Numbered from the stretch's first letter, positions 1 to 19,723 are shown. The stretch: DNA of 64,000 bases from a bacterium (GCA_021814165.1 JAKAIX010000002.1:136501-200500), one strand, 5' to 3'. Notes: generated from the letters alone by a model not told the origin. Numbers and translations are program-made.

Positions 1-1584
1 CTCGAAGCTTCTCATGGCATCCTGTAGTTGCCTTCTTATCTCGTCCGTCGCTTCTCTGGGTCGCCCGCTACTGACGGCCCTCTGCCAGTCGTTGTTTAAT
101 TTCAATATCTCGGTATTGACTCCCACGGTTTTCTCAAAGTCGTTATAAGCAGACGCCTGTCCAAAACGTTGGAAAAGCGTCTTTGTTTGGGGGTCTTGTA
201 TGTAGGAAGCGGCGCCATTTGCGACGTGGTCCAGCTCCTTGTTCTTGGTAAGCCGCGCAAGTGCCGCCACCCTTTCCTCGTCTTTCATAGTTGCAACACG
301 GAGCGCCAGCTGCTTATCGGATAAGTGAGCCTGTTTTTTTGTCGCTTCTTTTACGAGATTGTCGCCCTGCACCGCCCCCATGTTGCTTAGGACGTTTCCA
401 ACCCTGCCGAGAACGCCTCCTCTTGCCTGCAGCCGTTCGGTAAACTTCCTCCCGCCTTCTTCTCGGAGCGGCGAAGTCACTTGTTTATATGCCTTCTTTC
501 CCACCCACGTCGCGGACGCCTTCCCCGCTTTCTCACCAAGTTTGAGGGCGCCTGCCGCTCCCGCAATACCCATCTTCTGCGCCGCGATCACGCCCCCTAT
601 CAAGAATCCGCAAAGCGCCACCATCTGCATGCCCTGAGTTATAACCGTGCTGAGCCCCCCGAACACCCCTCCCCCCGACGGCGGTTGGGCCGTGTCCTTA
701 AGGAAACTCAGAGAGAGTATCGAAAGGTAAATAAAGAAGAGCATCGCGGGCTGGAAAAATACCCACTGGAAAAATGTATTCCACCACTTTGAGAAGAGAT
801 GTTTTAATGCGGGAAACGCCCAGAAAAGCCACACGATGGGCGCGATAATAAGGAGAAACGAGAGCACAATGAATCGTATCATTAGCATGCCCGCAAGGAG
901 GAACATCACCATGGAAGCGATAAGGGAGAACACGGTGATAAAAGTGAGATTTCCGATGCTTATAAGTATCGCGGCGGAAAATCCGGTCCATGCCCCCCCC
1001 TGCTCCGAGGGATCGGGCGGCGGCGGGTTGTCCGGAGGAAGGAATAATCGCTGCGGACCGAAAGCCGCCGCGAGCGATTGCGTGAACTCGGAGTAGTTGC
1101 CGCCCATTTTATCGAGAAACGATTGGGAGAGCGTGCCGGCGAAATTAATAAACACTCCGCCGATCGTCAGGCTGAAATTTACGATTATCGCGGCGCCGAT
1201 GAGCATAGGAAGAAGCTTCTTCGCGCCATAGCTCTGAATCCGGAGTATGGTCGCGAACGCAATGATAATAATAAGAAGCACGAAGCCGAGGTTCGCTACG
1301 TCTCTGGAAATTTTCCACCCCACCATAACGAGAGCATTCGATGTCGAAAGGATCTGACTGTTGAAATTCATCGCGATGCCCACGAAGAAGTTCGCGATCA
1401 TGAAGAGCACGCCGAAGATAAAGGAAAATACGTACGCGATCCCTCTCAAAACCGAGGTAAGGATCATGGTCGGAGAAAAGATGTCCCAAATTGCGGCGTG
1501 AGCGAAATGCGGCACGACGAAGAAAAGCACCGCGAGAATTCCGGCGAAGAGCATCATTTTCTTTTTCGTTAGCAAGTTCATATG
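1..1584 (-). CDS. Partial (C-terminus off the window edge) polytopic membrane protein, at least 527 aa. It has about 8 predicted TM helices, a Pro-rich linker (PPDNPPPPDP), and an Ala/Gly/Lys-rich hydrophilic tail. Possibly VirB6/TrbL-like.
   Basis: I translated the reverse strand from the ATG at 1584-1582 by hand (MNLLTKKKMMLFAGILAVLFFVVPHFAHAAIWDIF...). The frame stays open to position 1 and is absent from the ORF track only because it is truncated. Its architecture matches TrbL/VirB6-type proteins. It is first in a minus-strand run with two secreted or anchored proteins. Confidence 0.5.
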
Positions 1585-1605
1585 TCGGAACATTTCAAAT
1601 TGAAA

Positions 1606-3267
1606 TTATGGATAGACCTGGGAGCCCCCAACGCACGCGTTTAGTTTTCCTTGGGCGTCCTTCAGGGTTAGCTGAATTGCGGCAAGAAGTTGTGTGGCAT
1701 CTGACTTAATACTCGACGCCGAAGAGAGCGCAGCGGTTATGAGATCTCTAAACGATTGATCGATTGAAGGCATCTGCCCGCTACTAGCCTGGTTTTTTAA
1801 GAGCGAAGCGCGATCCTGGAGCTTCTGAATGCTGTCGGCTTGGTTGTTTAGGCTGTCTTGTATGGTCTTGATTTGCCCGGGATAGGTTGAGGTTGCGAGA
1901 ACAAGAGTGCTCGATGCCCAACTTATGTCAGTTGAAGAGGCGTTTGATCCCAGACAACTCAGGAGTGACTTGGTTGTAATATAAAGATTTCGCGTCGAAC
2001 TCGCCGCGGTTAAGAGCACATTTGAGGCGTCGTTCAGTGCTGTTTGAGCATCATCTAATGGCCTAAAAATTGCCGCAATTTGACTATTAGTCATGTTTTT
2101 TTGTGCTGTATCTGAAGAGGATGCTGCGTTTGTTATATCGGGGGTTCGCGTGATGCCCGAGTTTTGAGTGTTATCGGGTGAAAGTTTTGCGAGGCCGGTT
2201 TTTACTCCATTTATCCCCTCTTTCACCAATCGATTAAATGCCGCGTCGAGCACTGCGGCGAGCACATTTGTTATGTCGTCCGAGTTGACAATGAAGTCGA
2301 TGTTCGAGCCAAATGATTTGTTCAACCCCTCCGCGATGGTTCGTCCTGGCGTTGTGGTTTTTTTCTCCGTGCACCGGTATTCGAAATTAGGATCATCGCT
2401 CGTCGGTTGTGGCGCGGATCCGTCAGTTTTTACCACAAGAGGAAGACTGCCAGCATAAGTGGAGGCACCAAACTGGAAACCGGGTGTCAAAATATTGCCT
2501 CCAGATCCCTTATTATTCGCGGGCTGACTTGTCTTTACACTGTACATTGTCCAAGTGATACACGCCTCGCTGTTAAATCCGAGATTGATGTTTTGTTTCA
2601 AAACCGACTCCTGCTGTTTTTGCGCCACCGATTGTTCAAGCGCTTGCTGCGTGAGAATCTCCAGTCCGTACTGGTTATTTTGAGGTTTCAAGAGATCGGA
2701 ATAACCGAGCCATCCGCCGGTTTTGAAATCCCTTTTGAATGATTCCAAATTACTCACCACCTGAGAGAGCGTACAACTCACCTGCTTTTTTGTGGTATCC
2801 GGTTGAGCGAGATAGAAATTAACATTGAAGGGTATTCCACTGCATAATTGCCCCGCTCCTACTTGTCGGATTACCTCTCCGGCGGCCTCGTCTGCCGCCT
2901 GTTCAAATACCTTCCCCGGTTTTTGGAGAAAAAGTGGTTTGTCTCCGTTTTGTATCCACTGCACCGTTTCTCTCGTTATCTCATCAAGAAGCTGTTTTTT
3001 GAGTGTTGCGAGAAGTACTTTAAAAACCTTGTCTTGAATAAATCGCCACGCCTCCTCAAGAAAGCCAGCGGTGGTCGCTGTTGTTTGAGCGGCACCGGCA
3101 GCGGCTACGGCAGCGGCTACGGTCGGATCTATAACGAGTTGCGGAGTGACGTTGCTAAGAAGCCAAAACTGGGCTTTTGCTTTTGGCATAAGGAGGGCGG
3201 GATCTGAAATAAGAAAGATACTCAACACAAGAAATAATGAGACCACTCTGATTTTTTGTTGCTTCAT
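1606..3267 (-). CDS. Secreted protein of 553 aa with an N-terminal signal peptide; Ser/Thr/Ala/Asn-rich; unknown function.
   Basis: Complete ORF with N-terminus MKQQKIRVVSLFLVLSIFLISDPALLMPKAKAQ (signal-peptide-like). It is in an operon between an anchored protein and the polytopic membrane protein. Confidence 0.55.
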   Translation of the reverse strand: MKQQKIRVVSLFLVLSIFLISDPALLMPKAKAQFWLLSNVTPQLVIDPTVAAAVAAAGAAQTTATTAGFLEEAWRFIQDKVFKVLLATLKKQLLDEITRETVQWIQNGDKPLFLQKPGKVFEQAADEAAGEVIRQVGAGQLCSGIPFNVNFYLAQPDTTKKQVSCTLSQVVSNLESFKRDFKTGGWLGYSDLLKPQNNQYGLEILTQQALEQSVAQKQQESVLKQNINLGFNSEACITWTMYSVKTSQPANNKGSGGNILTPGFQFGASTYAGSLPLVVKTDGSAPQPTSDDPNFEYRCTEKKTTTPGRTIAEGLNKSFGSNIDFIVNSDDITNVLAAVLDAAFNRLVKEGINGVKTGLAKLSPDNTQNSGITRTPDITNAASSSDTAQKNMTNSQIAAIFRPLDDAQTALNDASNVLLTAASSTRNLYITTKSLLSCLGSNASSTDISWASSTLVLATSTYPGQIKTIQDSLNNQADSIQKLQDRASLLKNQASSGQMPSIDQSFRDLITAALSSASSIKSDATQLLAAIQLTLKDAQGKLNACVGGSQVYP

Positions 3268-3284
3268 AGGGATAAAAACAAAGG

Positions 3285-4091
3285 TTATTTCTTGTTTAGT
3301 GTGTTTGCTTGGTTAGAGAGAACGTTCTGGAGCATTATATTTTCTTCAAGTACCGAGCGAACATCGTTTAAGGCGATTGTCGCCTTCAGGGGATCGTTTT
3401 TAAAATCAAGAACGGCAGTGTATACTACTGACTTTTTCGCCCACAAATTCAGGTTCTGGAGATGCCACACCTTCCATTGGGGCGGTGCCTCGAGCGCCAA
3501 AAGGTCATTTACCTGCCCATTTATAATATTGATGTATTTTGCGAGCGGAGCAGAATCACTCTTATTGAAAAATGCGCTTAGAATATCCGTGGTCGACATA
3601 GAGAACGACCCGAAATTTTTCTGTGTGATCGAACCAATGGCGTTTAGATAATTGGTCTGCGCCTGGATCGAACCATCCTTCCCTGTCCTTATGTCTTTTT
3701 CAGAAAACGAGGGAAACGAGAGATCTTGCGATAGCGCCTGCGTAAGAAAATCATCCATTGATCCGGAAGGAGGCATTCTCAGCGTGTCGGTTGTATCGGT
3801 TGGGTTCCCGCTGTTCAGGTTATAGACCGACTCGACATAGTGCTGTGCTAATGTCTGCGTTAAGTTTCTGTCAGCTGCGGTGCTCGTGCCGATTCCCCAG
3901 GAATTGAGGTCCGAAAGCCCTCCCTCATTCTCAACTCCGTACCCGGCTTTTCCTGTGTTGGGATTTTGGACGACCGAGATGAACGGCTTTTCCCCGGACG
4001 ACGGGGAAATAACAAGGAGAAATGCGACAAGAATCCCCGCTCCGAGAATCATAAAAGCGGCAACCCTTCTTTTTTTGAAATATTGTTTCAT
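3285..4091 (-). CDS. N-terminally membrane-anchored extracytoplasmic protein, about 268 aa, unknown function.
   Basis: The ORF track gives 3285..4121. The internal ATG at 4091 (MKQYFKKRRVAAFMILGAGILVAFLLV) is preceded by an AGGGG-like RBS and avoids overlap with rsmA, so I prefer it. One TM helix, then a polar domain. Confidence 0.5.
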   Translation of the reverse strand: MKQYFKKRRVAAFMILGAGILVAFLLVISPSSGEKPFISVVQNPNTGKAGYGVENEGGLSDLNSWGIGTSTAADRNLTQTLAQHYVESVYNLNSGNPTDTTDTLRMPPSGSMDDFLTQALSQDLSFPSFSEKDIRTGKDGSIQAQTNYLNAIGSITQKNFGSFSMSTTDILSAFFNKSDSAPLAKYINIINGQVNDLLALEAPPQWKVWHLQNLNLWAKKSVVYTAVLDFKNDPLKATIALNDVRSVLEENIMLQNVLSNQANTLNKK

Positions 4092-4110
4092 CCCCTTTTT
4101 GTAATTGGAA

Positions 4111-4971
4111 TCACCCATCATAATTGTACAACATTTCTCCTATCTTTTTTATATCCTCGACACATAGGTTATGCGGGCGGTCGTTCGGTTTTACCCCGAT
4201 TTGTTTCAGACGTTCCGCAACACCATCTTTTTCTGCCTTGTTACACTTCTTTAACGATCGAAAGGCGAGTGTTATGTTGTTTACAATCGTTTTTCTGGGC
4301 TGCCCAAAGAGCGCATGCAGCGTGTCAAAATACCCCTGTTGTTTGCTCGGCGTCTCAACGGGTTGGTGTGTTTCAAGAAGAATGACGGCGGAATCTACTT
4401 TCGGTTTCGGAGCAAAATCATTCTTTCCGACGATCATCACCACCTTCGGTTTCGCCCATAATTGAATGCTTGCCGCAAGGAGATTCATATGAGGAGGCGT
4501 TGCCGTCGCGCGCAGCGCAACCTCTTTTTGGATCATGAATACTGCTCGCTTCGGGAGCATGGACAACCCGCTTATCGTACGGAAGAGGAATCCGGTGAGG
4601 TAGTAGGGAATGTTGCCTACCAGTTTGTAATTTCCAATTTCTAGTTTCCGATTTCTAATTAGTTCCGGAAGAACTTTCAAAACATCCCCATGGATAATTT
4701 CAATTTCGGATAAATTTTCCTTTCGGGGTTCAGAATTTATTTGAAGCTTGTCGTTTGTGATTTGGAATTTTTTTCTTAGAAAATCAACGAGGGCAGGGTC
4801 TTTCTCGATGGCTATGACTCTCACGGGGTAACGTAAAAGCTCCCCCGTGAGTTCGCCGTGCCCGGGACCAATTTCTATAATCACGTCACCGTCCTCCGGC
4901 GCGATGGCGTCGATTATTTTTTTCACCACCGTCTTGTTTTGCAGAAAATGTTGTCCGAGCCTCCTGGTCAT
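4111..4971 (-). CDS. rsmA: 16S rRNA (adenine1518/1519-N6)-dimethyltransferase RsmA/KsgA.
   Basis: N-terminus RLGQHFLQNKTVVKKIIDAIAPEDGDVIIEIGPGHGELT carries the SAM-binding motif, and VGNIPYYLTGFLF matches the KsgA signature. It has a C-terminal helical domain. Confidence 0.85.
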   Translation of the reverse strand: MTRRLGQHFLQNKTVVKKIIDAIAPEDGDVIIEIGPGHGELTGELLRYPVRVIAIEKDPALVDFLRKKFQITNDKLQINSEPRKENLSEIEIIHGDVLKVLPELIRNRKLEIGNYKLVGNIPYYLTGFLFRTISGLSMLPKRAVFMIQKEVALRATATPPHMNLLAASIQLWAKPKVVMIVGKNDFAPKPKVDSAVILLETHQPVETPSKQQGYFDTLHALFGQPRKTIVNNITLAFRSLKKCNKAEKDGVAERLKQIGVKPNDRPHNLCVEDIKKIGEMLYNYDG

Positions 4972-5501
4972 TGTAGTTGCGTTGTTTGTTTGAGAAATGT
5001 TTCGTCGTCTATTTCACCGATAACAATAAGACGCACGAACCCCGAGAGATTTTTTTCTTCGATGGTTTCGAAAATCATGCGCGGGATCGGGCGCTTTCCA
5101 AGAAACACGCTTCTTTGAACGAACGAATATCCCGCACTCGTAAGCGCACTCCGGAGCCAATCGCGTTCTCTCCTCCGTTTTTCGGGAATATCAAACGTGA
5201 TAAGACGCCACTTGCCGTCCCACGGTTCTTCGGGCGGACGCTCTCTTTGTCGAAGAAACTGAAACCCTCTTTCGGAAAGTTTTAGTTCACCTTGTTCCGA
5301 TCGTTCGACTAACCCCCTCTTCTCAAGCCGCCACAGCGTGGTACGGACACTCCCCCGTTTCGCGTGCCTTAGCGCCCCCAGACCGTCGTTTATAATCGCT
5401 TGAATCGGAGCAGATCCCCGTTCGGCAATACCCGACAGAATACCGAGGCCAAGCATCCCCATTCTCCGAGAAGATATATCTTTTTTGCTCCGCACTCGCA
5501 T
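4968..5501 (-). CDS. Small winged-helix regulator, PaaX-like. Its C-terminal half has a Cas2/VapD-like sequence pattern.
   Basis: The N-terminus (TTLWRLEKRGLVERSEQGELKLSERG) is wHTH-like. The C-terminus is WRLITFDIPEKRRRERDWLRSALTSAGYSFVQRSVF, i.e. a hydrophobic strand, D-x-P/E, an Arg cluster, then an SVF motif. It overlaps the rsmA stop by 4 nt. Confidence 0.45.
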   Translation of the reverse strand: MRVRSKKDISSRRMGMLGLGILSGIAERGSAPIQAIINDGLGALRHAKRGSVRTTLWRLEKRGLVERSEQGELKLSERGFQFLRQRERPPEEPWDGKWRLITFDIPEKRRRERDWLRSALTSAGYSFVQRSVFLGKRPIPRMIFETIEEKNLSGFVRLIVIGEIDDETFLKQTTQLQ

Positions 5502-5550
5502 AGTCTCTGTTTGAAATTATTATATCATAACACTTCATTCACGATCGTGG

Positions 5551-6672
5551 GTGAAGTGTTATGCGGTTCTTTTCTTTCCCAGCCTCTTTGCTATACTTAG
5601 TTTCATAAGTACGTTATTTTCCCACGTAAGAACCCTTTTTAAGAGGGGAGCTCCTAAGACGACCAGTTTCTGGTCGGTGCTTTTTGTAGTAATAATGGCC
5701 CTTTTTGGAGGGATTATAAGTGTCGGTGCGAGAGGGATAATCAGCGGTTATGAGGAGGGAAACAACTGGGGTTTTGGTGGGCCTGTTCAGAAACCGGAGA
5801 TGGTTGCCGCGTCAACGGGAGAAAAGAGCTCTTCCGAAGGAACGGGTTCTTCAAACGACGAACGACACACCCTTATCGCGGGAGACACGGCCGTGGTCGC
5901 TTCGTCGGACCCTTTAAGTGATCTTCTCCCCGTAAGCGGAGGGCTTAAAAGATATAAAGTGAAACGCGGCGACACCCTCCAGGGAATCGCCGATCGTTTT
6001 CACGTTTCCCGCGAAACGCTTCTATGGGCGAATCCGGGGGCCTCTTCGGTCCTTACGACGGGACAAACACTCCTGGTACCCCCCGTTTCCGGCGTCGTAT
6101 ACCAGGTTAAGCCGGGCGACACCCTTAAAGAAGTCGGCGGTACGTACGGGGTTGATCTTGAGCTTATAAAAAAATACAACGCGGATTATCAGAACGTACT
6201 AAGCGAGGGCGGAGTACTCATCCTCCCCTATGCGCGCCCGCTCGCTTCAAGCGGTCGCGGAACAACGTCCGCGGATGCCGATCTGCCGAATCTGAAAAAT
6301 TATTTCGCGCTTCCCGCTATCGGATGGAACTGGGGGCAGCTTCATAATTACAATGCGGTAGATATAGCGAATCAATGCGGCACGCCCGTTCATGCCGCGG
6401 CGGAGGGACTCGTGGTGATCGATGAAAATTTCGGGAGCGGCGCGGAAGGATGGAATGACGGATATGGAATCTTTGTTTTGGTCGAACATCCGAACGGAAC
6501 CAAAACTCGCTACGCGCATCTCGCAAAAGCTCTCGTGAAACCCGGCGATTACGTGAATCGCGGAGAAGAACTCGGTCTTATGGGAAACACCGGAAACACG
6601 CACGGACCGACCGGCTGCCACCTGCACTTTGAAGTATATGGAGCGAAGAATCCGTTTGCGGTCACGAAGTAG
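5551..6672 (+). CDS. Membrane-anchored peptidoglycan hydrolase with two LysM domains and a C-terminal M23 (LytM) metallopeptidase domain.
   Basis: The LysM repeats are GDTLQGIADRFHVSRETLLWANP and KPGDTLKEVGGTYGVDLELIKKYN. The M23 motifs are ...HLAKALVKPGDYVNRGEELGLMGNTGNTHGPTGCHLHFEV. Confidence 0.85.
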   Translation: MKCYAVLFFPSLFAILSFISTLFSHVRTLFKRGAPKTTSFWSVLFVVIMALFGGIISVGARGIISGYEEGNNWGFGGPVQKPEMVAASTGEKSSSEGTGSSNDERHTLIAGDTAVVASSDPLSDLLPVSGGLKRYKVKRGDTLQGIADRFHVSRETLLWANPGASSVLTTGQTLLVPPVSGVVYQVKPGDTLKEVGGTYGVDLELIKKYNADYQNVLSEGGVLILPYARPLASSGRGTTSADADLPNLKNYFALPAIGWNWGQLHNYNAVDIANQCGTPVHAAAEGLVVIDENFGSGAEGWNDGYGIFVLVEHPNGTKTRYAHLAKALVKPGDYVNRGEELGLMGNTGNTHGPTGCHLHFEVYGAKNPFAVTK

Positions 6673-6798
6673 TTTAGAAATTCTAAATCCTAACACCTAA
6701 ATCCTAAATAATAACTGAAATCCAAAATCGTAATAGTTGAAACCCGTGTTTGGAATTTTGAATTTTGTGCATTAGAATTTAGAGTTTCGAAATTAGAG
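6672..6798. repeat. Cluster of AT-rich heptamer-like tandem repeats (AAATCCT/GGAATTT/GAAATTA variants) between convergent genes.
   Basis: aaattctaaatcctaacacctaaatcctaaat...ggaattttgaattttg...ttagaatttagagtttcgaaattagag. Related blocks lie at 4621-4668, 21456-21532, 25141-25290, 29950-30032, 52651-52671, 53849-53886, 54688-54754 and 62617-62690. Confidence 0.7.
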
Positions 6799-6799
6799 C

Positions 6800-8338
6800 T
6801 TATTCGTTAGTCCTTATCCGATATTGAAACGCCTCTGCGAGGTGTTCTTTTGTTATTATCGGGGCGCTCTCGAGATCGGCGATGGTTTGTGCAACGCGGA
6901 GAATCCGATAGTACCCCCGCACCGACACGAAATTCCGCTCAATCATCTCCTTAAGAAATGACTCCGCATTTGTCTCGAGCGCGACCAACGCATCGACATT
7001 TTTTGACGACATCTCGTTATTGGTATAAATAGAAAGGTTATGTTTCAAGAAACGTTCCCTTTGAAGTACTCGCGCGCGACTCACGGATTCCTTTGCTGCT
7101 TCTTGTTCCCCTTCCGTGGGTTGGCTTCGTAAAACTTCTATTTTTACCCGCGGAACCTCGAGCTGGATATCAATCCTATCGAGAAGAGGTCCCGATATCC
7201 GCTTCTGGTATCGAAATACTCCGTGCGCGGTACAGGTACACTCGCGTTCCGCGTCCCCGAAATATCCACAGGGACAAGGATTCATCGCCGCCACAAGCAT
7301 GAATCGGGAAGGAAATATTGTGGCTTGTCTTGCGCGTGCAATGCACACCTCGCCTCCTTCGAGTGGTTGGCGAAGTGCTTCTAATGCATCGCGATGAAAC
7401 TCAGGGAGTTCGTCTAGAAAAAGAACTCCCCGATGCGCCAGGCTTATCTCCCCCGGCTTGGGGGTCTGACCCCCTCCAATAAGCGCGATTAACGATGTGC
7501 TGTGATGTGGTGACCTGAAGGGTCTGTGATGAATAAAGGGGAGCTCTTCATGAAGAAGTCCCGCGGCGCTCCAGATCGCCGTGGTTTCTATCTTTTCATC
7601 AAGTGAAGGGGGAGGAAGTACTGAAGCGAGCGCCTGTGCGAGCATAGTCTTTCCTGTGCCGGGCGGCCCCGAAAGAAGCAAATTGTGTCCCCCGGCGGCT
7701 GCGATTACGAGCGCGCGCTTTGCGGCTGATTGTCCTTTAATCTCACCGAAGGTCACGAGCGTGGTCGGATATGTCCCGGGAAATTCGGTGTGAGGTTGAG
7801 GAACAATCGGCTCAAGCTCTTCCAGGTGTGCGATGAGACGTGAAAGAGTCGCGACGGGGAATATTTTCACCTCTTTTACCGCGGCCGCTTCCCGTGCATT
7901 TGCCTCAGGAACAAAAAGCTCGGGAATTCCTTTCTCGCGGGCGAGGAGAGCTACATTAAGACAGCCGTTCACTGGGCGGAGGGATCCATCGAGGGAAAGT
8001 TCGCCGACGAACATCTTATTGTGCGTCGAAAACAAACCGAGTTGCTCGCTCGCCATGAGATATGCAAGGGCAATAGGAAGGTCGAATCTCGATCCGATCT
8101 TTTTCACGTCCGCGGGTGCGAGATTTATGGTAATGCGGCGATTTTCTTTCGTGGGTGGCTTGATGCCGGAGTTTTTAAGAGCGGAGTTCACGCGTTCCTT
8201 TGCCTCGCTGATCGCTTTATCCGCAAGCCCCACGATGTTAAACGCGTGAAGGCCGACGTTCAGGTCGGCCTCCACCTCAATAAGTTCTGCGGCAATCCCG
8301 TTAAGCTCCGCTGACAAGAGTTTCGGTACCGCGTGCAT
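6800..8338 (-). CDS. comM: YifB/ComM-family Mg-chelatase-like AAA+ ATPase.
   Basis: It has an N-terminal Lon-protease-like domain (RITINLAPADVKKIGSRFDLPIALAYL), a Walker A motif GPPGTGKT, and C-terminal ComM-like helices. Confidence 0.85.
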   Translation of the reverse strand: MHAVPKLLSAELNGIAAELIEVEADLNVGLHAFNIVGLADKAISEAKERVNSALKNSGIKPPTKENRRITINLAPADVKKIGSRFDLPIALAYLMASEQLGLFSTHNKMFVGELSLDGSLRPVNGCLNVALLAREKGIPELFVPEANAREAAAVKEVKIFPVATLSRLIAHLEELEPIVPQPHTEFPGTYPTTLVTFGEIKGQSAAKRALVIAAAGGHNLLLSGPPGTGKTMLAQALASVLPPPSLDEKIETTAIWSAAGLLHEELPFIHHRPFRSPHHSTSLIALIGGGQTPKPGEISLAHRGVLFLDELPEFHRDALEALRQPLEGGEVCIARARQATIFPSRFMLVAAMNPCPCGYFGDAERECTCTAHGVFRYQKRISGPLLDRIDIQLEVPRVKIEVLRSQPTEGEQEAAKESVSRARVLQRERFLKHNLSIYTNNEMSSKNVDALVALETNAESFLKEMIERNFVSVRGYYRILRVAQTIADLESAPIITKEHLAEAFQYRIRTNE

Positions 8339-8353
8339 GGATTTTCAATAACC

Positions 8354-8704
8354 CTAGTGTCTCTCGTTATGTTTGCAGCTTTTACAAAGCGCCGATTCCG
8401 GGTCTATATCGAGTATCTCTTGTTCGATCGGTTTTCCGCACCGCTCGCAGGAACCGTAGGTTCCGCTCTGAATCTTTTCGAGCGCCCGATTGATCGCTCC
8501 AAGCCGCGCATCCTGGGTTTTTTTGACACCGAGGTAGGTGCCCATTTCTTCGGACTCGTCGCTTTCTTCCTCGAGGTGATCGCTCTCGTCGCCAAAATCG
8601 AGCGTTTCCTTAAACTTCGCGAGCTCCTCTTCTATCTCTTTTTTCTCCGCTTCCAATCTCCTTTTTATTTCTTCCGTGTTTGCGTTGTCTTTTTTCATAA
8701 TCAC
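8354..8704 (-). CDS. DksA/TraR-family C4 zinc-finger protein.
   Basis: N-terminal coiled coil, then C-terminal C-x2-C...C-x2-C (GSCERCGKPIEQEILDIDPESALCKSCKHNERH). Confidence 0.7.
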   Translation of the reverse strand: MIMKKDNANTEEIKRRLEAEKKEIEEELAKFKETLDFGDESDHLEEESDESEEMGTYLGVKKTQDARLGAINRALEKIQSGTYGSCERCGKPIEQEILDIDPESALCKSCKHNERH

Positions 8705-8746
8705 AAAAAGTACCTACAGATTAGCACACTTTTTTGTTTATTTCCA

Positions 8747-8780
8747 GAAAACCCCGCTTTGTTCAGGCGGGGTTTTCTGT
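8747..8780 (-). terminator. Hairpin plus T-run between two minus-strand genes.
   Basis: AAAACCCCGC...GCGGGGTTTT stem followed by a T-rich tract. Confidence 0.45.
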
Positions 8781-8801
8781 TTGGTTTTATCCGAGCCGCC
8801 T

Positions 8802-9965
8802 CTATTGGAGATGCTGAAGCGCCGCCTTAAATCCGTCGTAGGAGCCGCTTACTATAAGAACGTTTCCGCTCCACCCGTAGTTGATGGAAAAACCGGAATT
8901 CGAGAATGTAAGATAGCGATTTTGAACGCCGCTCGTCTGCCCGTCTTTCCACGACCCCGGGGTTCCCGGATCGGCGGCAAACACACCGGCGAGTCCTTTG
9001 CTTGCTTCGAATGCTTGTGCGAAGGCGGTTTTGAGTCCGGCGAGCGAAGCGGCAGCGTCTGCCTTCGCAATGATGCCGAGCGCTCGGTTGCCGCTCGCGT
9101 TGGTGTAGATAAACTCGGAAACATTAGCGCTTGGAAATCCGTTTAGAAGCGCGCCAGACGAGAAATCTCCTCCGAAAATCGTTTGCATAATTGTCCCGAA
9201 TGAAACGAGATTACCCGTTGCGTCCTTATTTACCACTTCCGTGACGCTCGGCGCCTTAGGAGAAGAGAAGGTGACGCCCGAAAGTGAGGCCCCGGTTATG
9301 ACGGAAGTGCTTTCCGCCGAGACATCTGCTGGTGTTTTAAATACAGACACATGGGATGGCTTTTCAGGCGGAACGGCGGTCTCGGGTGTTGTTGTGGCCG
9401 TTGAGGTGGCCGTAGTCGTGGCGAGAGGCTCTTCTGCCGGAGGAGTTGTTGGAGGAACCTGCGGCTCCGGCGCGGTATTTACAATCGGTGTCGGCTCGCT
9501 CTTGCCGAAGAAAAGAGGATATACCACGAAATAACCGAGTGCCGCGAGCCCCACGACGATAATAAAGACAACCAACGCGACGAAGACGCCGTTTTTCTTT
9601 TTTACGGGCCCCATCGGTGTTTGTTGATTCATTCCTATGTCCATTTTTGGAAGTTCAAACGATTGAGGATTAACGCCGGCGGTTTTTTCCGCAGGCGCGC
9701 TTGGAGAAGCGGCGGCGGGCGCCTGCTGCGGCGTATAGGTTTTCGGCGTCGCGTCACCTGTTTGGATTGAAGAAATATCCGACCCCATCGTTCGCGCTTC
9801 AACGCGCGGGTTTTGTGCCGTATTAATCATCGGCGACTCCCCCTCACCGGTTCCGAGTGGTTTATTCTGTTGCCACTGGCCGGGATTTATAGTTTCGTTT
9901 CCCATGTGTTTATTATAGCACTTGGAGGTCGGGAGGCGTGTGGATAAAAAAAAGAAAATCCCCAA
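8802..9965 (-). CDS. Membrane-anchored Pro/Thr/Ala-rich extracytoplasmic protein of unknown function.
   Basis: One TM helix (VFVALVVFIIVVGLAALGYFVVYPLFF), then a PT-rich linker and a Gly/Ser-rich C-terminal domain. The start could instead be the ATG at 9905 (MGNETINPG). Confidence 0.5.
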   Translation of the reverse strand: MGIFFFLSTRLPTSKCYNKHMGNETINPGQWQQNKPLGTGEGESPMINTAQNPRVEARTMGSDISSIQTGDATPKTYTPQQAPAAASPSAPAEKTAGVNPQSFELPKMDIGMNQQTPMGPVKKKNGVFVALVVFIIVVGLAALGYFVVYPLFFGKSEPTPIVNTAPEPQVPPTTPPAEEPLATTTATSTATTTPETAVPPEKPSHVSVFKTPADVSAESTSVITGASLSGVTFSSPKAPSVTEVVNKDATGNLVSFGTIMQTIFGGDFSSGALLNGFPSANVSEFIYTNASGNRALGIIAKADAAASLAGLKTAFAQAFEASKGLAGVFAADPGTPGSWKDGQTSGVQNRYLTFSNSGFSINYGWSGNVLIVSGSYDGFKAALQHLQ

Positions 9966-10116
9966 ATCCGTATTGCTCTCAACTCGGGCGCTTGCTTACC
10001 AAATATACCAATATTAGAAAGATAGGACCGTGCTTGGTAAGCATCCCGAGGAGTTCACGACGAGGGGCTACTTCATTATTCGGTCTTACCCTCGTTCGAG
10101 CAATACGGATTTGGGG
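9960..10116. repeat. 157-nt element bounded by perfect 19-bp inverted repeats (ccccaaatccgtattgctc / gagcaatacggatttgggg), with an inner 9-bp inverted repeat.
   Basis: The terminal inverted repeats are at 9960-9978 and 10098-10116. The inner pair is gcttaccaa (9994-10002) with ttggtaagc (10035-10043). It lies immediately downstream of pnp. Confidence 0.7.
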
Positions 10117-10140
10117 TACGGAAAGGAAAGATAGGGTTGC

Positions 10141-12201
10141 TTAAGATTGAGGAGGCGCTTCCATCTGCTTTAGAGAAAGTCCGATCTTCCCTTCTTCAAC
10201 GCGGATGATTTTCGCTTTTACTCTGTCACCCACATGCACCACGTCCTCCACCTTTTTCACAAAGCCGTTTTTCAGTTCCGACACGTGAATCATCCCGTCT
10301 CGTCCTCCGCCCAGATCTACAATTGCTCCGAATTCGAGGATGCGAACCACGGGCCCTTCGACAACTTCCCCGATGTGATACTCGTGGAAGATCTGATCGA
10401 TAAACCCGATCGCTTTCGAAACGAGGGAGGCGTCGGTACCCGCGATAAATACGCTCCCGTCCTGTTCTATGTCGATCGAAACCTTGTTTTCAACCTGAGC
10501 GAGAATGCCGTTGATGGTCTTGCCGCCGGGACCGATAAGCTCGCCGATTTTTTCCGGATTTATATGAATCGTCGTAATCATCGGTGCAAATGGCGAGAGC
10601 TCCTTTCTGGGGGCGGCGAGTACCGCATTCATCACATCCAATATATGAAGGCGCGCCTTTTTCGCGGCAACGAGCGCTTCCTTGAATATTTGAAGCGTGA
10701 TGCCGCCGATCTTCACGTCCATCTGAATCGCGTTCACGCCGTCTTTCGTGCCTGCAACCTTGAAATCCATGTCGCCGTAGTGGTCTTCGGGCCCCTGAAT
10801 ATCGGTTAATATTTTATAACCCCCTTTCTCGTCGCTCATGAGCCCAATCGAGATTCCTGCGATTTGCCGCTCGATCGGTACGCCGGCATCCATAAGGGAA
10901 AGTGACGTCGCGCAAGTCGATGCCATCGATGACGACCCGTTCGAGGAAAGCGTCTCCGCAACGACGCGAATGGTGTAGGGAAAAGTGTCGGTTCCGGGAA
11001 GCATGGGACGTATCGCTTTCGCGGCAAGCGCTCCGTGTCCTATCTCGCGTCTCCCCGGCCCTCTGGATCGCCCCGTTTCTCCGACCGAGAAGCTAGGGAA
11101 ATTATAGTGAAGCATAAAGCGCTTTTTCTCCGTCGTTTCCATGGTCTCGACAATCTGCTCTGCCCCGGGGGTGCCGAGCGTAGTAACCGCAAGCACCTGA
11201 GTTTCTCCCCGTATGAAGAGCGCCGAGCCGTGCGTGCGGCGGAATAATCCCGTCTCTGCGAGAAGGTCGCGCACTTCGTCGAGCGCCCTTCCGTCGGCGC
11301 GCCTCCCTTTTTCGATTGCGAGAGCGTGCACGAAACGATCAACCTCTTCTTCAAAAACAATTTCCGCAATGCGAAGCGAGTCCTCGTTTTCTCCCAAGGC
11401 CTTTAGATGCTCGAAAAGTTTTCCGAGCAGTTCCTCAACTCGCTTTTCTTTGAGCGCCGTTTCAAGCTCGTCTTTCAGAAATTCACTCACCGTATGTCGC
11501 AGATTCGGGTCCGCCTCCGGGAGTGCGACGTCCGCCTTCGGTTTCCCAACCTCCTTTATGATGGTCGTCTGAAAGTCGATGAGTTTTTTTATCTCTTCGT
11601 GCGCTTCGGTAAATATGCGTTCCGCGTCGCTCTCAGGACGTTCTTTCCCCTCAAACTCAATCATATTCACAAACTCCTTCGTCCCTGAGAAAAACGCCTG
11701 ATATCCGTATGAATGATCCGTTTTCGGCTCGATCGCCTTCACGCCTGCGACGGGTCCGCTCCACGGCACATCGGAGATTGCGAGCGCCGTCGATGCGGCA
11801 AGAAGTGCGATCACGTCCGGATCGTTCTTCTCGTCATAAGCGAGGACGGTGATAACTACTTGCACCTCGCGCCGGAGGCGCGGATCGAAAAGCGGCCGGA
11901 GCGTTCTGTCGATAAGGCGGGCCGAAAGCGTCGCTTCATCGGATGGTCGTCCCTCGCGCCGCACAAAGCGGCTTCCGATAATTTTCCCCGCCGCGTAGAA
12001 ACGCTCTTCGTAGTCGACGGTGAGTGGAAAGAAGTTTCCCGACTTGTTTTCTCCCGACATTACGACGGTTGCGAGCACCGCCGTGTCCCCGTACTTTCCG
12101 ATAACCGCGGCATTCGCTTTGCTGGCAAGTTTCGAAATTTCGATTTGAACCGATTCGCCCTTGAGAGTTGTAGAATACGTTTTTTTCGCTAAATCCATAT
12201 G
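10141..12201 (-). CDS. pnp: Polynucleotide phosphorylase (PNPase).
   Basis: Two RNase PH domains, then KH and C-terminal S1 (GEVVEGPVVRILEFGAIVDLGGGRDGMIHVSEL). I placed the start at MDLAKKTYSTTLKG by alignment with bacterial PNPase N-termini. The ORF track start at 12249 is probably too long. Confidence 0.9.
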   Translation of the reverse strand, partial: HMDLAKKTYSTTLKGESVQIEISKLASKANAAVIGKYGDTAVLATVVMSGENKSGNFFPLTVDYEERFYAAGKIIGSRFVRREGRPSDEATLSARLIDRTLRPLFDPRLRREVQVVITVLAYDEKNDPDVIALLAASTALAISDVPWSGPVAGVKAIEPKTDHSYGYQAFFSGTKEFVNMIEFEGKERPESDAERIFTEAHEEIKKLIDFQTTIIKEVGKPKADVALPEADPNLRHTVSEFLKDELETALKEKRVEELLGKLFEHLKALGENEDSLRIAEIVFEEEVDRFVHALAIEKGRRADGRALDEVRDLLAETGLFRRTHGSALFIRGETQVLAVTTLGTPGAEQIVETMETTEKKRFMLHYNFPSFSVGETGRSRGPGRREIGHGALAAKAIRPMLPGTDTFPYTIRVVAETLSSNGSSSMASTCATSLSLMDAGVPIERQIAGISIGLMSDEKGGYKILTDIQGPEDHYGDMDFKVAGTKDGVNAIQMDVKIGGITLQIFKEALVAAKKARLHILDVMNAVLAAPRKELSPFAPMITTIHINPEKIGELIGPGGKTINGILAQVENKVSIDIEQDGSVFIAGTDASLVSKAIGFIDQIFHEYHIGEVVEGPVVRILEFGAIVDLGGGRDGMIHVSELKNGFVKKVEDVVHVGDRVKAKIIRVEEGKIGLSLKQMEAPPQS

Positions 12202-12321
12202 AATGATTGTGTGCGCTGCCCGATTATCGGCATATTCGCATACTCGCATCGTTATCGGGTTGCGGTACCGATGCCAATATACGAATAAACCGAATTATAA
12301 GAACAACGCCGTTACGACTTA

Positions 12322-12837
12322 TTATCGCTCCCTGATTTTTAGAAGCGCGCGCGGTATTTTTTCCACCTCGACGAAGGTGTCCGCCGCCTCCTTTATTTTT
12401 GCCGATGCCGTTCTCGAGAACGCCGCAACATGCACTTCTTTCCCGAGCCCCCATTTCAGGTACTCGATGAGTGGAACGAAGTCGCCGTCGCCCGTGATGA
12501 GCACGACCACGTCAAGCGAAGACGCCATCCGAATCGCATCGACTGCCATCCCGACGTCCCAGTCCCCCTTTTTCGTCCCGTCGGCGAAGATCTGGAGATC
12601 TTTGGTGCGGAGATCGAAACCGCTCTTCCTCAGGGCGTCGAAAAAGGTATCCTCTCTTGTCGCGGGATCGCTTTTCACGACGTACGCGAATGCGCGCACG
12701 AATTGGCGGGTCCCTATAACCGACCGAAGAAGTTCTTTAAAGTTCACCCGCGCACGGTACAAGTTTTTCGCAGAATGGTAAATATTCTGCGCATCAAGGA
12801 AGATGCCCACGCGCTGATTCGGATTCATGTGTGACAT
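12322..12837 (-). CDS. NYN/LabA-like (PIN-fold) domain protein.
   Basis: Sequence GIFLDAQNIYHSAKNLYRARVNFKELL...VVLITGDGDFVPLIEYLKWGLGKEVHV matches the NYN (DUF88) acidic-residue pattern. Confidence 0.7.
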   Translation of the reverse strand: MSHMNPNQRVGIFLDAQNIYHSAKNLYRARVNFKELLRSVIGTRQFVRAFAYVVKSDPATREDTFFDALRKSGFDLRTKDLQIFADGTKKGDWDVGMAVDAIRMASSLDVVVLITGDGDFVPLIEYLKWGLGKEVHVAAFSRTASAKIKEAADTFVEVEKIPRALLKIRER

Positions 12838-12840
12838 GCG

Positions 12841-13107
12841 TTACGCTCCGAGTTCGAGTTTCTTCGAAATTCTCGTGTACTTTTTCTCGTCGGTGTCGCG
12901 GAGATACTGAAGAAAACGGCGTCGCTTTCCCACCATCATTAAAAGTCCTCGGCGGGAGTGGAAATCCTTGGGGTGTTTCTTCAGGTGATCGGCGAGGAAT
13001 TTGATGCGCTTTGAAATAAGCGCAATCTGCACCTCGCTGGAGCCGGTGTCAGTTGTGTGCTCCTGGTGTTCTTTAATAACCGTTTGCTTCTGGCGCTTGC
13101 TAAGCAT
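12841..13107 (-). CDS. rpsO: 30S ribosomal protein S15.
   Basis: MLSKRQKQTVIKEH...GSSEVQIALISKRIKFLADHLKKHPKDFHSRRGLLMMVGKRRRFLQYL is S15-family. This is the classic rpsO-pnp neighbourhood. Confidence 0.9.
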   Translation of the reverse strand: MLSKRQKQTVIKEHQEHTTDTGSSEVQIALISKRIKFLADHLKKHPKDFHSRRGLLMMVGKRRRFLQYLRDTDEKKYTRISKKLELGA

Positions 13108-13352: not shown

Positions 13353-14240
13353 ATGAGCGAGATCGAAAAATATTTGAAGGAATACCTCGATTATCTCGAG
13401 GTGGAAAAAAACCGCTCCCCGAAAACGCGCGAGAACTACGAGCGCTATCTCTCTCGGTTTGTGGCGACAATAAAAATTAAAACGCTCGGTGATGTCACCG
13501 AGGAGTCGATACGGGAATTCAGGGTGCGGCTCTCGCATGAGAATTTGAAGAAGATCAGCCAGAGTTATTATGTGATCGCGATCAGGAACTTTCTGAAATA
13601 TCTCGTGAAGCGGGGCGTTAAGGCGCTTCCGCCGGACAGAATCGAGCTTCCGAAGGTTTCGCGCCGCGATATCGAGACGCTTGAGTACGGGGAGCTTGAG
13701 CGGCTCGTCGCCGCGCCGAAGATATCAACATTCCGCGGACTCCGCGATAAGGCGATTTTAGAAACGCTTTTTTCGACGGGGCTTCGTCTTTCCGAGCTTT
13801 GCGCGCTCCCCCGCTATATCGATCTCGATCGCGGTGAGATCACCGTGCGCGGAAAGGGAGATAAACTTCGAATCGTATTTCTTTCGGACGCCGCGAAAAA
13901 GACTATTAAGGCATATCTCGAAAAACGGCCCGACACCAACGAAGCGCTCTTCGTAAGTTTGAGTAAAAAGGGGAAAGTGCTCGGACGGGTAACGCCGAGG
14001 TCCGTCGAGCGGCTCGTTTCATACTATGCGCGCGCCGCGGGGATTCCGAAAAGAGTGCATCCCCACCAGCTCCGCCACTCGTTTGCCACCGATCTTCTTA
14101 TAAACGGCGCCGATATCCGGTCGGTGCAGGCGCTTCTGGGACACGCGAACATCTCGACGACCCAGATCTACACCCATCTTACAAACAAAGAGCTCCGCGA
14201 GGTTCATAGAGCGTTCCACGGAAGGAGGAGGAAAAACTAG
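13353..14240 (+). CDS. Tyrosine recombinase, XerC/XerD-like.
   Basis: N-terminal SAM-like domain, then the catalytic C-terminus HQLRHSFATDLLINGADIRSVQALLGHANISTTQIYTHL carrying the R..H-x-x-R..Y motifs. Its codon usage is host-like. Confidence 0.85.
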   Translation: MSEIEKYLKEYLDYLEVEKNRSPKTRENYERYLSRFVATIKIKTLGDVTEESIREFRVRLSHENLKKISQSYYVIAIRNFLKYLVKRGVKALPPDRIELPKVSRRDIETLEYGELERLVAAPKISTFRGLRDKAILETLFSTGLRLSELCALPRYIDLDRGEITVRGKGDKLRIVFLSDAAKKTIKAYLEKRPDTNEALFVSLSKKGKVLGRVTPRSVERLVSYYARAAGIPKRVHPHQLRHSFATDLLINGADIRSVQALLGHANISTTQIYTHLTNKELREVHRAFHGRRRKN

Positions 14241-14296: not shown

Positions 14297-14381
14297 TATG
14301 GTGCCCCCGAGAGGATTTGAACCTCTAACTCTTTCGAGACAGCGTCCTAAGCGCTGCGCGTATTCCAGTTCCGCCACGGGG
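14297..14381 (-). tRNA. tRNA-Leu, anticodon UAG, type II with a long variable arm; CCA is encoded.
   Basis: The reverse complement folds as acceptor GCCCCCG/CGGGGGC, anticodon stem CAGCG/CGCTG with loop CTTAGGA, T-arm AGAGG-TTCAAAT-CCTCT, discriminator A, then CCA. Confidence 0.85.
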
Positions 14382-14427
14382 GCTCTTTTTTCCTCATTCT
14401 ATGCGCTTTTTCGCCCCAAGACGAGGT

Positions 14428-18486: not shown

Positions 18487-18760
18487 TGTACGTGAGGGGG
18501 TAGATTGCCGTTGCGAGGAGTGCTACCGCCGCGGCAATACAGGCGTAAAGCACCATTCTTTTTGCCTTCGTCACTCTTTCCCGGTCGCCGCCCGCAGTCA
18601 GGAAAAGAATGGCGGCCCAGATAAGCGCTCCTACCGCGAGTATCCAGAACGTGGTGTAAAGGAAGTTCACTATCCTATATACCGAGCTTTCAACTTGGGT
18701 GAGCGAAGTAAGCGAGGATTGTTGCGCATGCGCGACGAGAATTAATGGAATCAGTTTCAT
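18467..18760 (-). CDS. VirB2/TrbC-like pilin-family small protein, paralog 1: signal peptide plus two TM helices.
   Basis: 97 aa with a signal peptide, then TM1-LTAGGDRERVTKAKRMV-TM2. Its size and topology match T4SS pilins, and it shares a loop motif with three neighbours. Confidence 0.5.
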   Translation of the reverse strand: MKLIPLILVAHAQQSSLTSLTQVESSVYRIVNFLYTTFWILAVGALIWAAILFLTAGGDRERVTKAKRMVLYACIAAAVALLATAIYPLTYNVLQGK

Positions 18761-18792
18761 GATTTTATTGTACTACATGGCTTCTAAAATTA

Positions 18793-18897
18793 GGAGGCCG
18801 GGTCTCTGACCGAGTTTTCTCGCGGACAAAGTACTAGCAACTAGCCCGACCTCCATATATTAAGAAAGCCCGGCTTCCTCGCGGAGGCCGGGCTTCC
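18793..18897. repeat. GC-rich hairpin repeats in the spacer between pilin-like genes 1 and 2.
   Basis: ggaggccgggtctc...gcccgacctcc, plus gaagcccggcttcctcgcggaggccgggcttcc, the same unit as at 18421-18453. Confidence 0.75.
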
Positions 18898-18917
18898 ACT
18901 TTAAAAAACAAAAGAGC

Positions 18918-19292
18918 TTATGAGAGCGTTCCGCTCAAGGCGCTCTTCACAATCGTTTGTAATCCGGTTGAAAGAAGCGCAATCGCTGCGGCGATAATAG
19001 CGTAGATAACCCTGTTTTTTGCCTCCTTTATCTTCTCTTCGTTTCCTGCGCCGGTAAGATAAAGAACTGCCGCCCAGATAAGGAAGAGAACAGTCAAAAC
19101 CCAGAAGATGACAATCACCCAGTTTACGATAGTCGCCAAACTTGACGTCGCCCCCGACAAAGAGGAGACGGGCGCCTGGTTCTGAACGGTACCGCTAGGA
19201 CCGACAGGGCCCGTTTGCGCCAACGCTGCGAGAGGCGAGAGCATACTCACTGCGAGTGCTGTTGCGGCGATTGCTTGTAAAGTTTTTTTCAT
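18918..19292 (-). CDS. VirB2/TrbC-like pilin-family small protein, paralog 2.
   Basis: The ORF track extends to 19523. I prefer the ATG at 19292 (MKKTLQAIAATALAVSM...), which has an AAGGAAA RBS and leaves a signal peptide plus two TM helices with loop LTGAGNEEKIKEAKNRV. Confidence 0.5.
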   Translation of the reverse strand: MKKTLQAIAATALAVSMLSPLAALAQTGPVGPSGTVQNQAPVSSLSGATSSLATIVNWVIVIFWVLTVLFLIWAAVLYLTGAGNEEKIKEAKNRVIYAIIAAAIALLSTGLQTIVKSALSGTLS

Positions 19293-19324
19293 GTGTTTCC
19301 TTGTTGTTGCTCGACCTTTTGGAG

Positions 19325-19723
19325 CTACTGGACGTTCAGCACGTCTCTGATGATCGAAACCATGCCCCAACCTATCACGATTATAGCATACCCGATTGCG
19401 GTGTAAAGAATTGTCTTCTTTCCCGTTGCAAAACGTTCCGGATTCCCTCCCGCGAAAATCATCTGGAACGCTCCGATAAGCATCATGCCGACCGCGATGG
19501 GAGTTGCGATTGTAATGAGCCAATCGACGATATTTTTCAGAAGATCTTCAAAAGTCGAAGCGCCGAGCGGATTGGTTAGGGGAGCGGTAGGCTGGATGCA
19601 GTTGGTGGTTATGGTCGCGTCACACACGGTCGTAATCTCTGCTTGAGAAACGTTAGGAGAAAATAAAAAGATTCCCAGGCCAAACAACAAGATGAGCACG
19701 AATAGCGAAAAAAACCTTCTCAT
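19325..19723 (-). CDS. VirB2/TrbC-like pilin-family small protein, paralog 3.
   Basis: Signal peptide MRRFFSLFVLILLFGLGIFLFS, a Cys/Thr-rich segment, two TM helices, and loop FAGGNPERFATGKKTIL. Confidence 0.5.
   Translation of the reverse strand: MRRFFSLFVLILLFGLGIFLFSPNVSQAEITTVCDATITTNCIQPTAPLTNPLGASTFEDLLKNIVDWLITIATPIAVGMMLIGAFQMIFAGGNPERFATGKKTILYTAIGYAIIVIGWGMVSIIRDVLNVQ

Follow-up and report, generated by a model that had tools for sequence, protein, structure and literature searches.

Two unannotated extracytoplasmic protein families at the promoter-proximal end of a probable Patescibacteria-type type IV secretion operon

We analysed a stretch of 64,000 nucleotides (nt) of DNA (GCA_021814165.1 JAKAIX010000002.1:136501-200500), referred to here as the window, from a Parcubacteria/Paceibacteria-like bacterium near Jorgensenbacteria. 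At the left edge of the window three consecutive genes on the minus strand encode a VirB6/TrbL-like polytopic membrane protein, a secreted protein (ORF2) and a membrane-anchored protein (ORF3). This trio, together with the T4SS (type IV secretion system) to which it appears to belong, is the subject of this work. A large part of bacterial diversity belongs to the Patescibacteria, which live attached to other bacterial cells. Their chromosomal T4SS is essential for epibiotic growth in the one species tested genetically, Southlakia epibionticum (PMC10633639), and is suspected to be a conduit between parasite and host. The composition of this machine is a puzzle: it spans a monoderm envelope and has a VirB2-type pilus although VirB5, VirB7, VirB9 and VirB10 are missing and most classes also lack a detectable VirB8. 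The operon of the largest class (Paceibacteria/Parcubacteria) starts with two unannotated extracytoplasmic proteins, one of them from a family of thousands of sequence clusters.

The window was compared with locus L001, a contig of 340 kb (DAIBYO010000002.1, assembly GCA_027423885.1) which was reached, among other records, through an exact sequence match of ORF2. Positions 1-4000 of the window are identical to L001, with window position x corresponding to L001 position 13268-x, and the genes beyond the window edge were read from this contig. In addition, 185,579 species genomes were pattern-scanned with an alignment of the VirB6 family, which yielded 330 relatives. From these, 80 loci were kept (Jorgensen-, Wolfe-, Brenner- and Harrisonbacteria, Paceibacterota, Minisyncoccia and unclassified Patescibacteria) and combined with L001 and L006-L008 to a set of 84 related loci, in which open reading frames (ORFs) were called and iterated profiles were built for each operon gene. 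Many of the gene absences within this set are caused by contig ends. The features of the locus are collected in Table 1.

Table 1. Genes of the trio, of the operon beyond the window edge, of the pilin array and of the flanking region. Coordinates refer to the window unless L001 is named; aa, amino acids; TM, transmembrane.
Feature	Position	Strand	Basis or description
VirB6/TrbL-like polytopic membrane protein, 'extended VirB6' type	1..1581	(-)	open frame, PF04610, hydropathy, operon position
ORF2, 553-aa secreted protein, unannotated family	1606..3267	(-)	signal peptide, conserved core, operon position
ORF3, bitopic protein (N-in, one TM), 268-278 aa	3285..4121	(-)	predicted extracytoplasmic all-alpha four-helix-bundle domain
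p339, 339-aa acidic/lysine-rich protein	L001, directly downstream of VirB6	same as VirB6	no TM segments (cytoplasmic)
PrgI/VirB3, 164 aa	L001 14757-15251		PF12666, 31.7 bits (cut-off 27)
TrsD/TraC-like VirB4 N-domain protein, 209 aa	L001, from 15270		precomputed PF26593 TraC-like; TraC_F_IV E=0.012
VirB4 ATPase, 584 aa	L001 15896-17650		P-loop_TraG 101.3 bits, AAA_10, DUF87
p143, small 143-aa protein	L001, downstream of VirB4		two TM segments
p238, 235-aa secreted protein	L001, after p143		Ig-like
p506, 506-aa pilin-domain fusion	L001 18810-20330		N-terminal PF18895 T4SS_pilin, 34.8 bits (cut-off 26.6)
p408, 408-aa anchored protein	L001, after p506		
Four divergent VirB2-like T4SS pilin genes	18467-18760, 18918-19298, 19325-19723, 19728-20201	(-)	PF18895
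KsgA/RsmA rRNA dimethyltransferase	4111..4971	(-)	PF00398 RrnaAD, precomputed annotation
LysM + peptidase M23 cell-wall hydrolase	5551..6672	(+), divergent	Peptidase_M23 85.7 bits, LysM 56.8 bits

Translation of the window edge revealed a frame that is open from position 1596 on the minus strand up to the edge without interruption, and since it contains a stop-free run of 527 codons in DNA of about 50% GC, it is not a chance ORF. A preliminary description of the window had pointed to this long ORF of at least 527 codons and had placed its start at 1584. The ORF stands, whereas the start has to be shifted by 3 nt: ATG codons are located at 1593 (MFRHMNLL...) and 1581 (MNLLTKKK...), and the latter is the database gene call. 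The 527 codons inside the window represent the N-terminal part of a 680-aa protein (L001 11687-13729). Hydropathy analysis agreed with the architecture given before, that is about eight TM helices, a Pro-rich linker and an Ala/Gly/Lys-rich tail. A signal-like N-terminus is followed by about seven further hydrophobic segments (38-74, 90-120, 122-149, 199-263, 271-294 and 313-340). The region at about 150-198 (LFLPPDNPPPPDPSEQ) forms a hydrophilic loop rich in Pro, and a hydrophilic tail of about 340 aa, in which no recognisable domain was found, begins with an Ala/Gly/Lys-rich stretch.

The genes downstream of VirB6 on L001 lie on the same strand and are separated by short gaps or overlap. The preliminary description had expected VirB4-, VirB3- or VirB8-like genes beyond the edge if the trio was part of a T4SS-like module. 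PrgI/VirB3, TrsD/TraC-like, VirB4 and T4SS_pilin genes indeed follow directly and no permease operon was encountered; a VirB8 homologue was not found. VirB4 is split on L001 (15270-17650) into the 209-aa TrsD/TraC-like protein and the 584-aa ATPase, whose genes overlap by 4 nt, and the TrsD-family profile aligns to residues 26-187 of an unsplit 797-aa clostridial VirB4 (E=8e-9). Likewise, the PrgI-family profile matches the annotated PrgI of pCDC3875. The C-terminal domain of p506 contains 18 cysteines, and its sequence includes SCHAIGTCAD and a C-terminal H-V-Q-W. This bears a resemblance to the SxHxxGxAxD zinc motif of LAS/M15-type peptidoglycan peptidases.

Within the 84 loci the order ORF3-ORF2-VirB6-p339-PrgI-TrsD-VirB4-p143-p238-p506-p408 is near-invariant. 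VirB6 was identified at a constant operon position in 83 loci and ORF2 directly upstream of it in 79; p339 is present in 77, VirB4 in 73, ORF3 in 69, PrgI in 68, TrsD in 67, p238 in 65, p506 in 60, p408 in 55 and p143 in 54. KsgA lies upstream in 67 of the 84 loci. In the window its stop overlaps or abuts the start of ORF3, and we regard it as a housekeeping positional marker of the locus and not as a part of the T4SS. In relatives, convergent R3H/Jag and YidC genes, which are origin-proximal markers, are located after the operon. The presence of VirB4, PrgI, a separate TrsD and VirB2-type pilins, a cluster free of relaxase and type IV coupling protein (T4CP) genes, and the KsgA context place the locus among known systems. 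We consider it highly probable that an 11-gene chromosomal T4SS operon of the Patescibacteria type, related to the mating-pair formation (MPF) class MPF-FATA, has the trio at its promoter-proximal end, with ORF2 and ORF3 as a likely extracellular subcomplex, and that the system is probably non-conjugative. A T4SS of this kind has already been described in 2023-2025, and the locus adds no new kind of system.

A relaxase or a VirD4-type coupling protein was detected neither in the 11-gene operon nor among the window ORFs scanned, and the sole FtsK-like protein of the window, which contains alpha and gamma domains, is a true FtsK. With relaxase and T4CP missing from the cluster, the machine probably does not conjugate. 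For comparison, the T4SS-related ComB uptake system of Helicobacter is likewise not known to have a coupling protein or a relaxase. Two observations would fit a conjugative T4SS, derived from an integrative and conjugative element or a plasmid, which exports DNA to recipients: the proteins most similar to VirB4, PrgI and TrsD are conjugation proteins from Firmicutes and Actinobacteria, and a tyrosine recombinase is located beside a tRNA-Leu gene 9-10 kb away. However, this recombinase is found in the same synteny in a relative, and the housekeeping context, with KsgA on one side and YidC/Jag on the other side in relatives, is kept across dozens of genomes. Relaxases have moreover been reported in only 103 Patescibacteria genomes (PMC12102498), and neither the operon nor the window ORFs scanned yielded one. 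We judge a conjugative T4SS of this kind to be very improbable.

The pilin-like array which had been noticed 15 kb away comprises four genes (18467-20201), and all of them exceed the PF18895 T4SS_pilin cut-off of 26.6 bits (30.2, 39.2, 45.1 and 33.9 bits). One of the array pilins additionally matches PF04956 TrbC/VirB2 (E=9.8e-6). The array is situated about 15 kb from the operon and not inside it; VirB2 arrays have been described for Patescibacteria (PMC12102498). Because the pilins are of the VirB2 type, the type IV pilus alternative falls away, and with it a competence-related module, which the preliminary description had also considered. A type IV pilus/Com competence apparatus might have been suspected from the ComM-like gene (6800-8338) and RecA (37235-38281) in the window, and an ordinary permease operon from the polytopic nature of the window-edge protein. 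But the pilins match VirB2/TrbC families and not type IV pilins, PilB/C/D/T and ComEC/ComEA were not detected among the window ORFs scanned, and the downstream genes encode VirB3, VirB4 and T4SS_pilin proteins instead of transporter subunits. The chance that the genes represent either of these is negligible.

The assignment of the edge protein to VirB6 was evaluated separately. A search with PF04610 (TrbL) gave the match that the layout of the protein had led one to expect (E=3.3e-5, 24.2 bits, profile positions 94-212 of 215), but the score stays just under the cut-off, and the similarity extends only over the membrane domain's second half. Among 21 diverse homologues, six matched PF04610 (E<=0.01; best 1.1e-6). 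Altogether 185 homologues of the VirB6 family were found. Most of them carry PF19590 TrbL_3 in the precomputed annotation, a homologue with 87% identity carries both PF04610 and PF19590 there, and for one homologue NCBI gives the name 'type IV secretion system protein'. In the Pfam copy used for our own scans PF19590 did not match any sequence. Hidden Markov model (HMM) consensus sequences of eight operon families gave nothing useful against Pfam, and that of VirB6 misses TrbL. The protein has at least five TM helices and a hydrophilic loop, and its gene stands beside those of VirB3 and VirB4. Based on the borderline sequence evidence, the topology and the invariant position beside PrgI and VirB4, we call the product of window positions 1-1581 VirB6-like with good confidence. 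VirB6 proteins of Patescibacteria are known to be highly divergent and are mostly recognised by the MPF-T VirB6 profile (PMC12102498).

In ORF2 a hydrophobic segment at the N-terminus precedes an A-x-A motif which is kept in homologues; this N-terminus reads as a cleavable signal peptide, as had been proposed for a 553-aa protein at this position. In an alignment of 64 homologues the core (about residues 81-236 and 300-360) is conserved and free of gaps and shows the motifs LKKRLLD..T..WI, PQNN.YG, TTPG and DAA.NRL. Six cysteines are kept in 91-98% of these sequences, four in the core (Cys142, Cys165, Cys236 and Cys299) and two at the C-terminus (Cys438 and Cys545). Between Cys236 and Cys299 lies a hypervariable insert with a length of 0-78 residues, and the C-terminal region is variable in sequence, too. 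For the C-terminus a long three-helix bundle is predicted (about 377-547). An AlphaFold2 model calculated from an 11-sequence alignment reached a mean predicted local distance difference test (pLDDT) score of 50.8 and was confident only at about 390-547, the C-terminal bundle.

The ORF2 family is large. A word-indexed search retrieved 12 homologues, whereas an exhaustive profile search among cluster representatives retrieved 4327 (E<=1e-3), 3319 (<=1e-10) and 782 (<=1e-30). In 10 sampled clusters every name found was 'hypothetical protein', and the organisms were of the Parcubacteria type. The statement that ORF2 and ORF3 are devoid of recognisable domains was borne out by searches against Pfam and NCBIfam, which gave no family match for either protein; when 64 ORF2 and 62 ORF3 homologues were scanned singly against Pfam, no recurrent match appeared. 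Against PDB sequences the ORF2 profile produced only coiled-coil or composition matches and the ORF3 profile nothing. VirB5/TraC (pKM101 TraC, PDB 1r8i), a type of secreted protein in which an elongated helical bundle carries a globular appendage (PF07996), was considered as a possible analogue of ORF2.

For ORF3 three start sites are available, at 4121 (278 aa), 4118 (277 aa, the database call) and 4091 (268 aa). The last one agrees with the starts of several homologues and results in the length given in the preliminary description, which had recognised ORF3 as an N-terminally anchored protein. Hydropathy analysis identified a Lys/Arg-rich N-terminus followed by a single TM segment (residues 17-42). 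ORF3 thus has the bitopic N-in topology with one TM helix that is typical of VirB8/PrgL/TraM. Although this topology made it the obvious candidate for the missing VirB8, it was rejected as such, because the model predicts an all-alpha four-helix bundle and not an NTF2-like alpha+beta domain.

Evidence for a common function of ORF2 and ORF3 came from six loci (L063, L065, L072, L075, L080 and L082) in which both are fused to a single ORF of 583-798 aa. The N-terminal half of the fusion is ORF3-like, with a TM anchor and the NLT and DPLK motifs, and the C-terminal half is ORF2-like, with the motifs WI.G..P.F, PGNN and TTPG. In a neighbour-joining tree of VirB4 the five fusion loci with a VirB4 of more than 500 aa form one deep clade (L065 was not placed), which points to one ancient fusion that has been stably retained. 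The fusion puts both domains in one compartment and on one chain, and consequently the separate ORF2 and ORF3 proteins likely act together. As one diversified clade encodes both as a single polypeptide, it is most likely that they bind each other, and together they likely constitute an extracellular subcomplex of the T4SS. Their profiles did not match in the two monoderm plasmid T4SS loci compared (L089 and L090, see below). In combination with the different accessory set of Saccharimonadia, this suggests on the available evidence that the pair is an elaboration of the Paceibacteria type. In the text of PMC12102498 and of PMC10633639 we found neither protein named. What is modestly new is that the Paceibacteria operon has two unannotated families as constant promoter-proximal, extracytoplasmic members and that one clade encodes them as a fusion.

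It could be argued that the T4SS genes are real, but that ORF2 and ORF3 are unrelated cell-envelope proteins, wall-associated or adhesive, which merely happen to be encoded near the origin in the same conserved neighbourhood as KsgA and the T4SS. Neither sequence nor fold links them to a known component of a T4SS, the closest monoderm plasmid clusters compared do not contain them, and housekeeping genes such as KsgA, ComM-like and PNPase are equally syntenic with the operon, so synteny alone is no proof of function. On the other hand, in L001, L006, L007 and L008 both genes lie on the same strand as virB6, the gaps being no longer than 24 nt or replaced by short overlaps. Their position is the same in 69-79 of the 84 loci down to about 20-25% identity, and an extracytoplasmic location suits that part of a monoderm T4SS for which known components are missing. 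We therefore consider an unrelated envelope function unlikely.

The interpretation as an 11-gene T4SS operon with ORF2 and ORF3 as a subcomplex has several points to its disadvantage. The PF04610 score of the VirB6-like protein is below the curated cut-off of 25.9 bits both for the window part and for the full length (23.6 bits). Against PDB sequences the VirB6-family profile gave no membrane-domain match and left the solved VirB6 structures undetected; with hmmsearch and hhalign it also failed to detect an annotated clostridial VirB6/TrbL-like protein, and tblastn of the membrane domain against 72,556 plasmids yielded no match. The core of ORF2 could not be modelled, as indicated by the low mean pLDDT, and the tie of ORF2 and ORF3 to the T4SS comes from conserved operon position, compartment and one fusion lineage. 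Finally, a relaxase or T4CP may exist elsewhere in the genome.

If the operon encodes such a T4SS, VirB4 with its detached N-domain protein would be held at the membrane by PrgI/VirB3 and would power assembly and transport through a VirB6-based channel, at which the VirB2-like pilins would be extracted from the membrane and polymerised into a pilus or tube. ORF3, anchored by one helix, would present its four-helix bundle outside the cytoplasmic membrane. The secreted and disulfide-stabilised ORF2 would form with ORF3 a lineage-specific assembly sitting on the VirB6 channel and would turn its hypervariable loop and its long helical bundle towards the cell wall or the host. The LysM-M23 peptidase may open the wall. 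More likely than conjugation the machine would serve the epibiotic lifestyle, either by protein export into the host bacterium or by uptake of host macromolecules. A preprint of 2026 suggests tubular structures, possibly T4SS pili, at the parasite-host interface of a cultivated member of the phylum during uptake of host RNA, and in a preprint of that year feeding on host RNA in the phylum is linked to PNPase and the T4SS.

ORF2 and ORF3 are testable candidates for the missing extracellular T4SS parts and for host recognition. A speculative and rather doubtful extension of this idea is that the pair acts as extracellular adaptor of the Paceibacteria T4SS and functionally takes the place of VirB5 and/or VirB8. 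With the ORF3 helix as its anchor and docked on the VirB6 channel, it would nucleate or cap a VirB2-type pilus across the monoderm wall, and the Cys236-Cys299 loop of ORF2 would be the determinant of host specificity at the contact between parasite and host.

The region flanking the operon in the window was analysed as well. KsgA has been reported to be enriched near virB4 in Patescibacteria, and VirB1-like proteins with M23/LysM domains have been noted there (PMC12102498). The divergent LysM-M23 gene is found upstream of the operon on the opposite strand in 45 of the 84 loci, and its domains make it a candidate for a VirB1-like peptidoglycan remodeller of the T4SS. Between it and ksgA lies a gene for a PaaX_M/Cas2-like winged helix-turn-helix protein (4968-5501, minus strand), which overlaps ksgA by 4 nt. 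Homologues occur in only two of the 84 loci, so that a regulator has probably been inserted here recently, immediately ahead of ksgA and the T4SS operon. An inverted repeat with 17-bp arms (5526-5563; CATAACACTTCATTCAC GATC GTGGGTGAAGTGTTATG) lies in the 49 bp that separate the PaaX-like from the M23 gene; it spans the putative GTG start of the M23 gene and could be an operator or a 5' hairpin. A promoter and terminator scan of window positions 1-7000 performed no better than on shuffled sequence.

Upstream of the operon a syntenic block on the minus strand (6800-13107) encodes a ComM-like ATPase of the Mg-chelatase family, a DksA/TraR zinc-finger protein, a 387-aa protein, PNPase, an NYN-domain protein and S15. 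Where at least 9 kb upstream of the operon were available (65 loci), ComM was found 53 times, the DksA zinc-finger protein 41 times and PNPase at least 33 times. The synteny of PNPase, the NYN-domain protein and the ComM-like protein with the operon is suggestive, but it could equally reflect an origin-proximal gene order. Next to an Xer-like tyrosine recombinase (13353-14240) and then tRNA-Leu (14299-14383) comes a block of lower GC content (0.44-0.46) up to 18000 with three plus-strand ORFs, one of which has weak Big_1/macroglobulin-like matches while another encodes a polytopic 370-aa protein. The segment 13353-18000 may be a small island, yet the recombinase is syntenic in a relative. A membrane glycosyltransferase of the PMT family (dolichyl-phosphate-mannose protein mannosyltransferase-like; 16933-18486, minus strand) adjoins the pilin array, and a link to glycosylation of pilins or surface proteins is possible. 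The remaining housekeeping genes of the window encode GyrA, FtsH, the true FtsK, H+-PPase, RecA, NusA, SHMT, FolD, tRNA synthetases and others.

Comparison with known systems showed the closest agreement of gene content with the chromosomal T4SS of Patescibacteria (PMC12102498; S. epibionticum SEML1_0006-0019, PMC10633639). Quinonero-Coronel et al. (2025; PMC12102498) found that the Patescibacteria VirB4 proteins form a clade that is sister to MPF-FATA, that TrsD and PrgI are abundant and relaxases rare, and that KsgA, DnaA and RnpA are located nearby; the source genome of the window is not present in the supplementary tables of that paper. Shared with our locus are VirB4 and a separate TrsD-like protein, PrgI/VirB3, a VirB6-like protein and VirB2-like pilins including a divergent array, as well as a cluster without relaxase and T4CP, the adjacent KsgA and, in relatives, the origin-proximal YidC/Jag genes. 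The cluster of Saccharimonadia differs in having two very large VirB6-like proteins, an NTF2-like (VirB8-like) protein and a lysozyme beside VirB4, whereas the operon of the Paceibacteria type contains one extended VirB6 of 680 aa after ORF3 and ORF2, lacks an NTF2-like protein and has its pilin array about 15 kb off. Extended VirB6 proteins are defined by at least five hydrophobic helices and a large C-proximal hydrophilic domain (PMC12857230, FEMS Microbiol Rev 2025 review). The window protein resembles them in its helices and its large C-terminal hydrophilic domain, but differs in that its similarity to Pfam TrbL is partial and sub-threshold and its tail domainless.

The best plasmid relatives of VirB4 are ATPases of the monoderm 'CD1110-family' (31-35% identity). 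The corresponding MPF-FATA systems of monoderms (pCF10 Prg/Pcf; CTn2 'CD1110-CD1115' type; pCDC3875, L090) share VirB4 at this level of identity, PrgI, a VirB6-like polytopic gene just upstream of PrgI and VirB4, and a peptidoglycan hydrolase nearby. In contrast to the operon studied here, they possess VirD4 and a relaxase, their VirB4 is unsplit and VirB2 pilins are generally lacking. Their VirB6-like protein (260 aa) escaped detection with the profile of the window VirB6 family, and they contain no counterpart of ORF2 or ORF3. When our family profiles were run with hhalign and hmmsearch against L090 and the Pontibacillus locus L089, VirB4, PrgI, TrsD and pilins were recovered, but not VirB6, ORF2 and ORF3.

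L089 is located on a megaplasmid of Pontibacillus sp. ALD_SL1 (NZ_CP062975.1, 351.8-361.4 kb), which is typed as non-mobilizable, and it adjoins flagellar genes. It differs from the Paceibacteria-type operon in residing on a megaplasmid of a Firmicute and in having no homologue of ORF2 or ORF3, and its 779-aa polytopic protein is only marginally similar to the VirB6 family (hhalign probability 48%). In one block, however, it combines this polytopic protein with two proteins annotated as 'Mbov_0395 family pilin-like conjugal transfer protein', a PrgI-like protein, a TrsD-like protein of 274 aa (E=1.6e-40), VirB4 (E=4e-147) and a 1050-aa M23 endopeptidase. Among the systems seen here, it is the nearest analogue outside the Patescibacteria.

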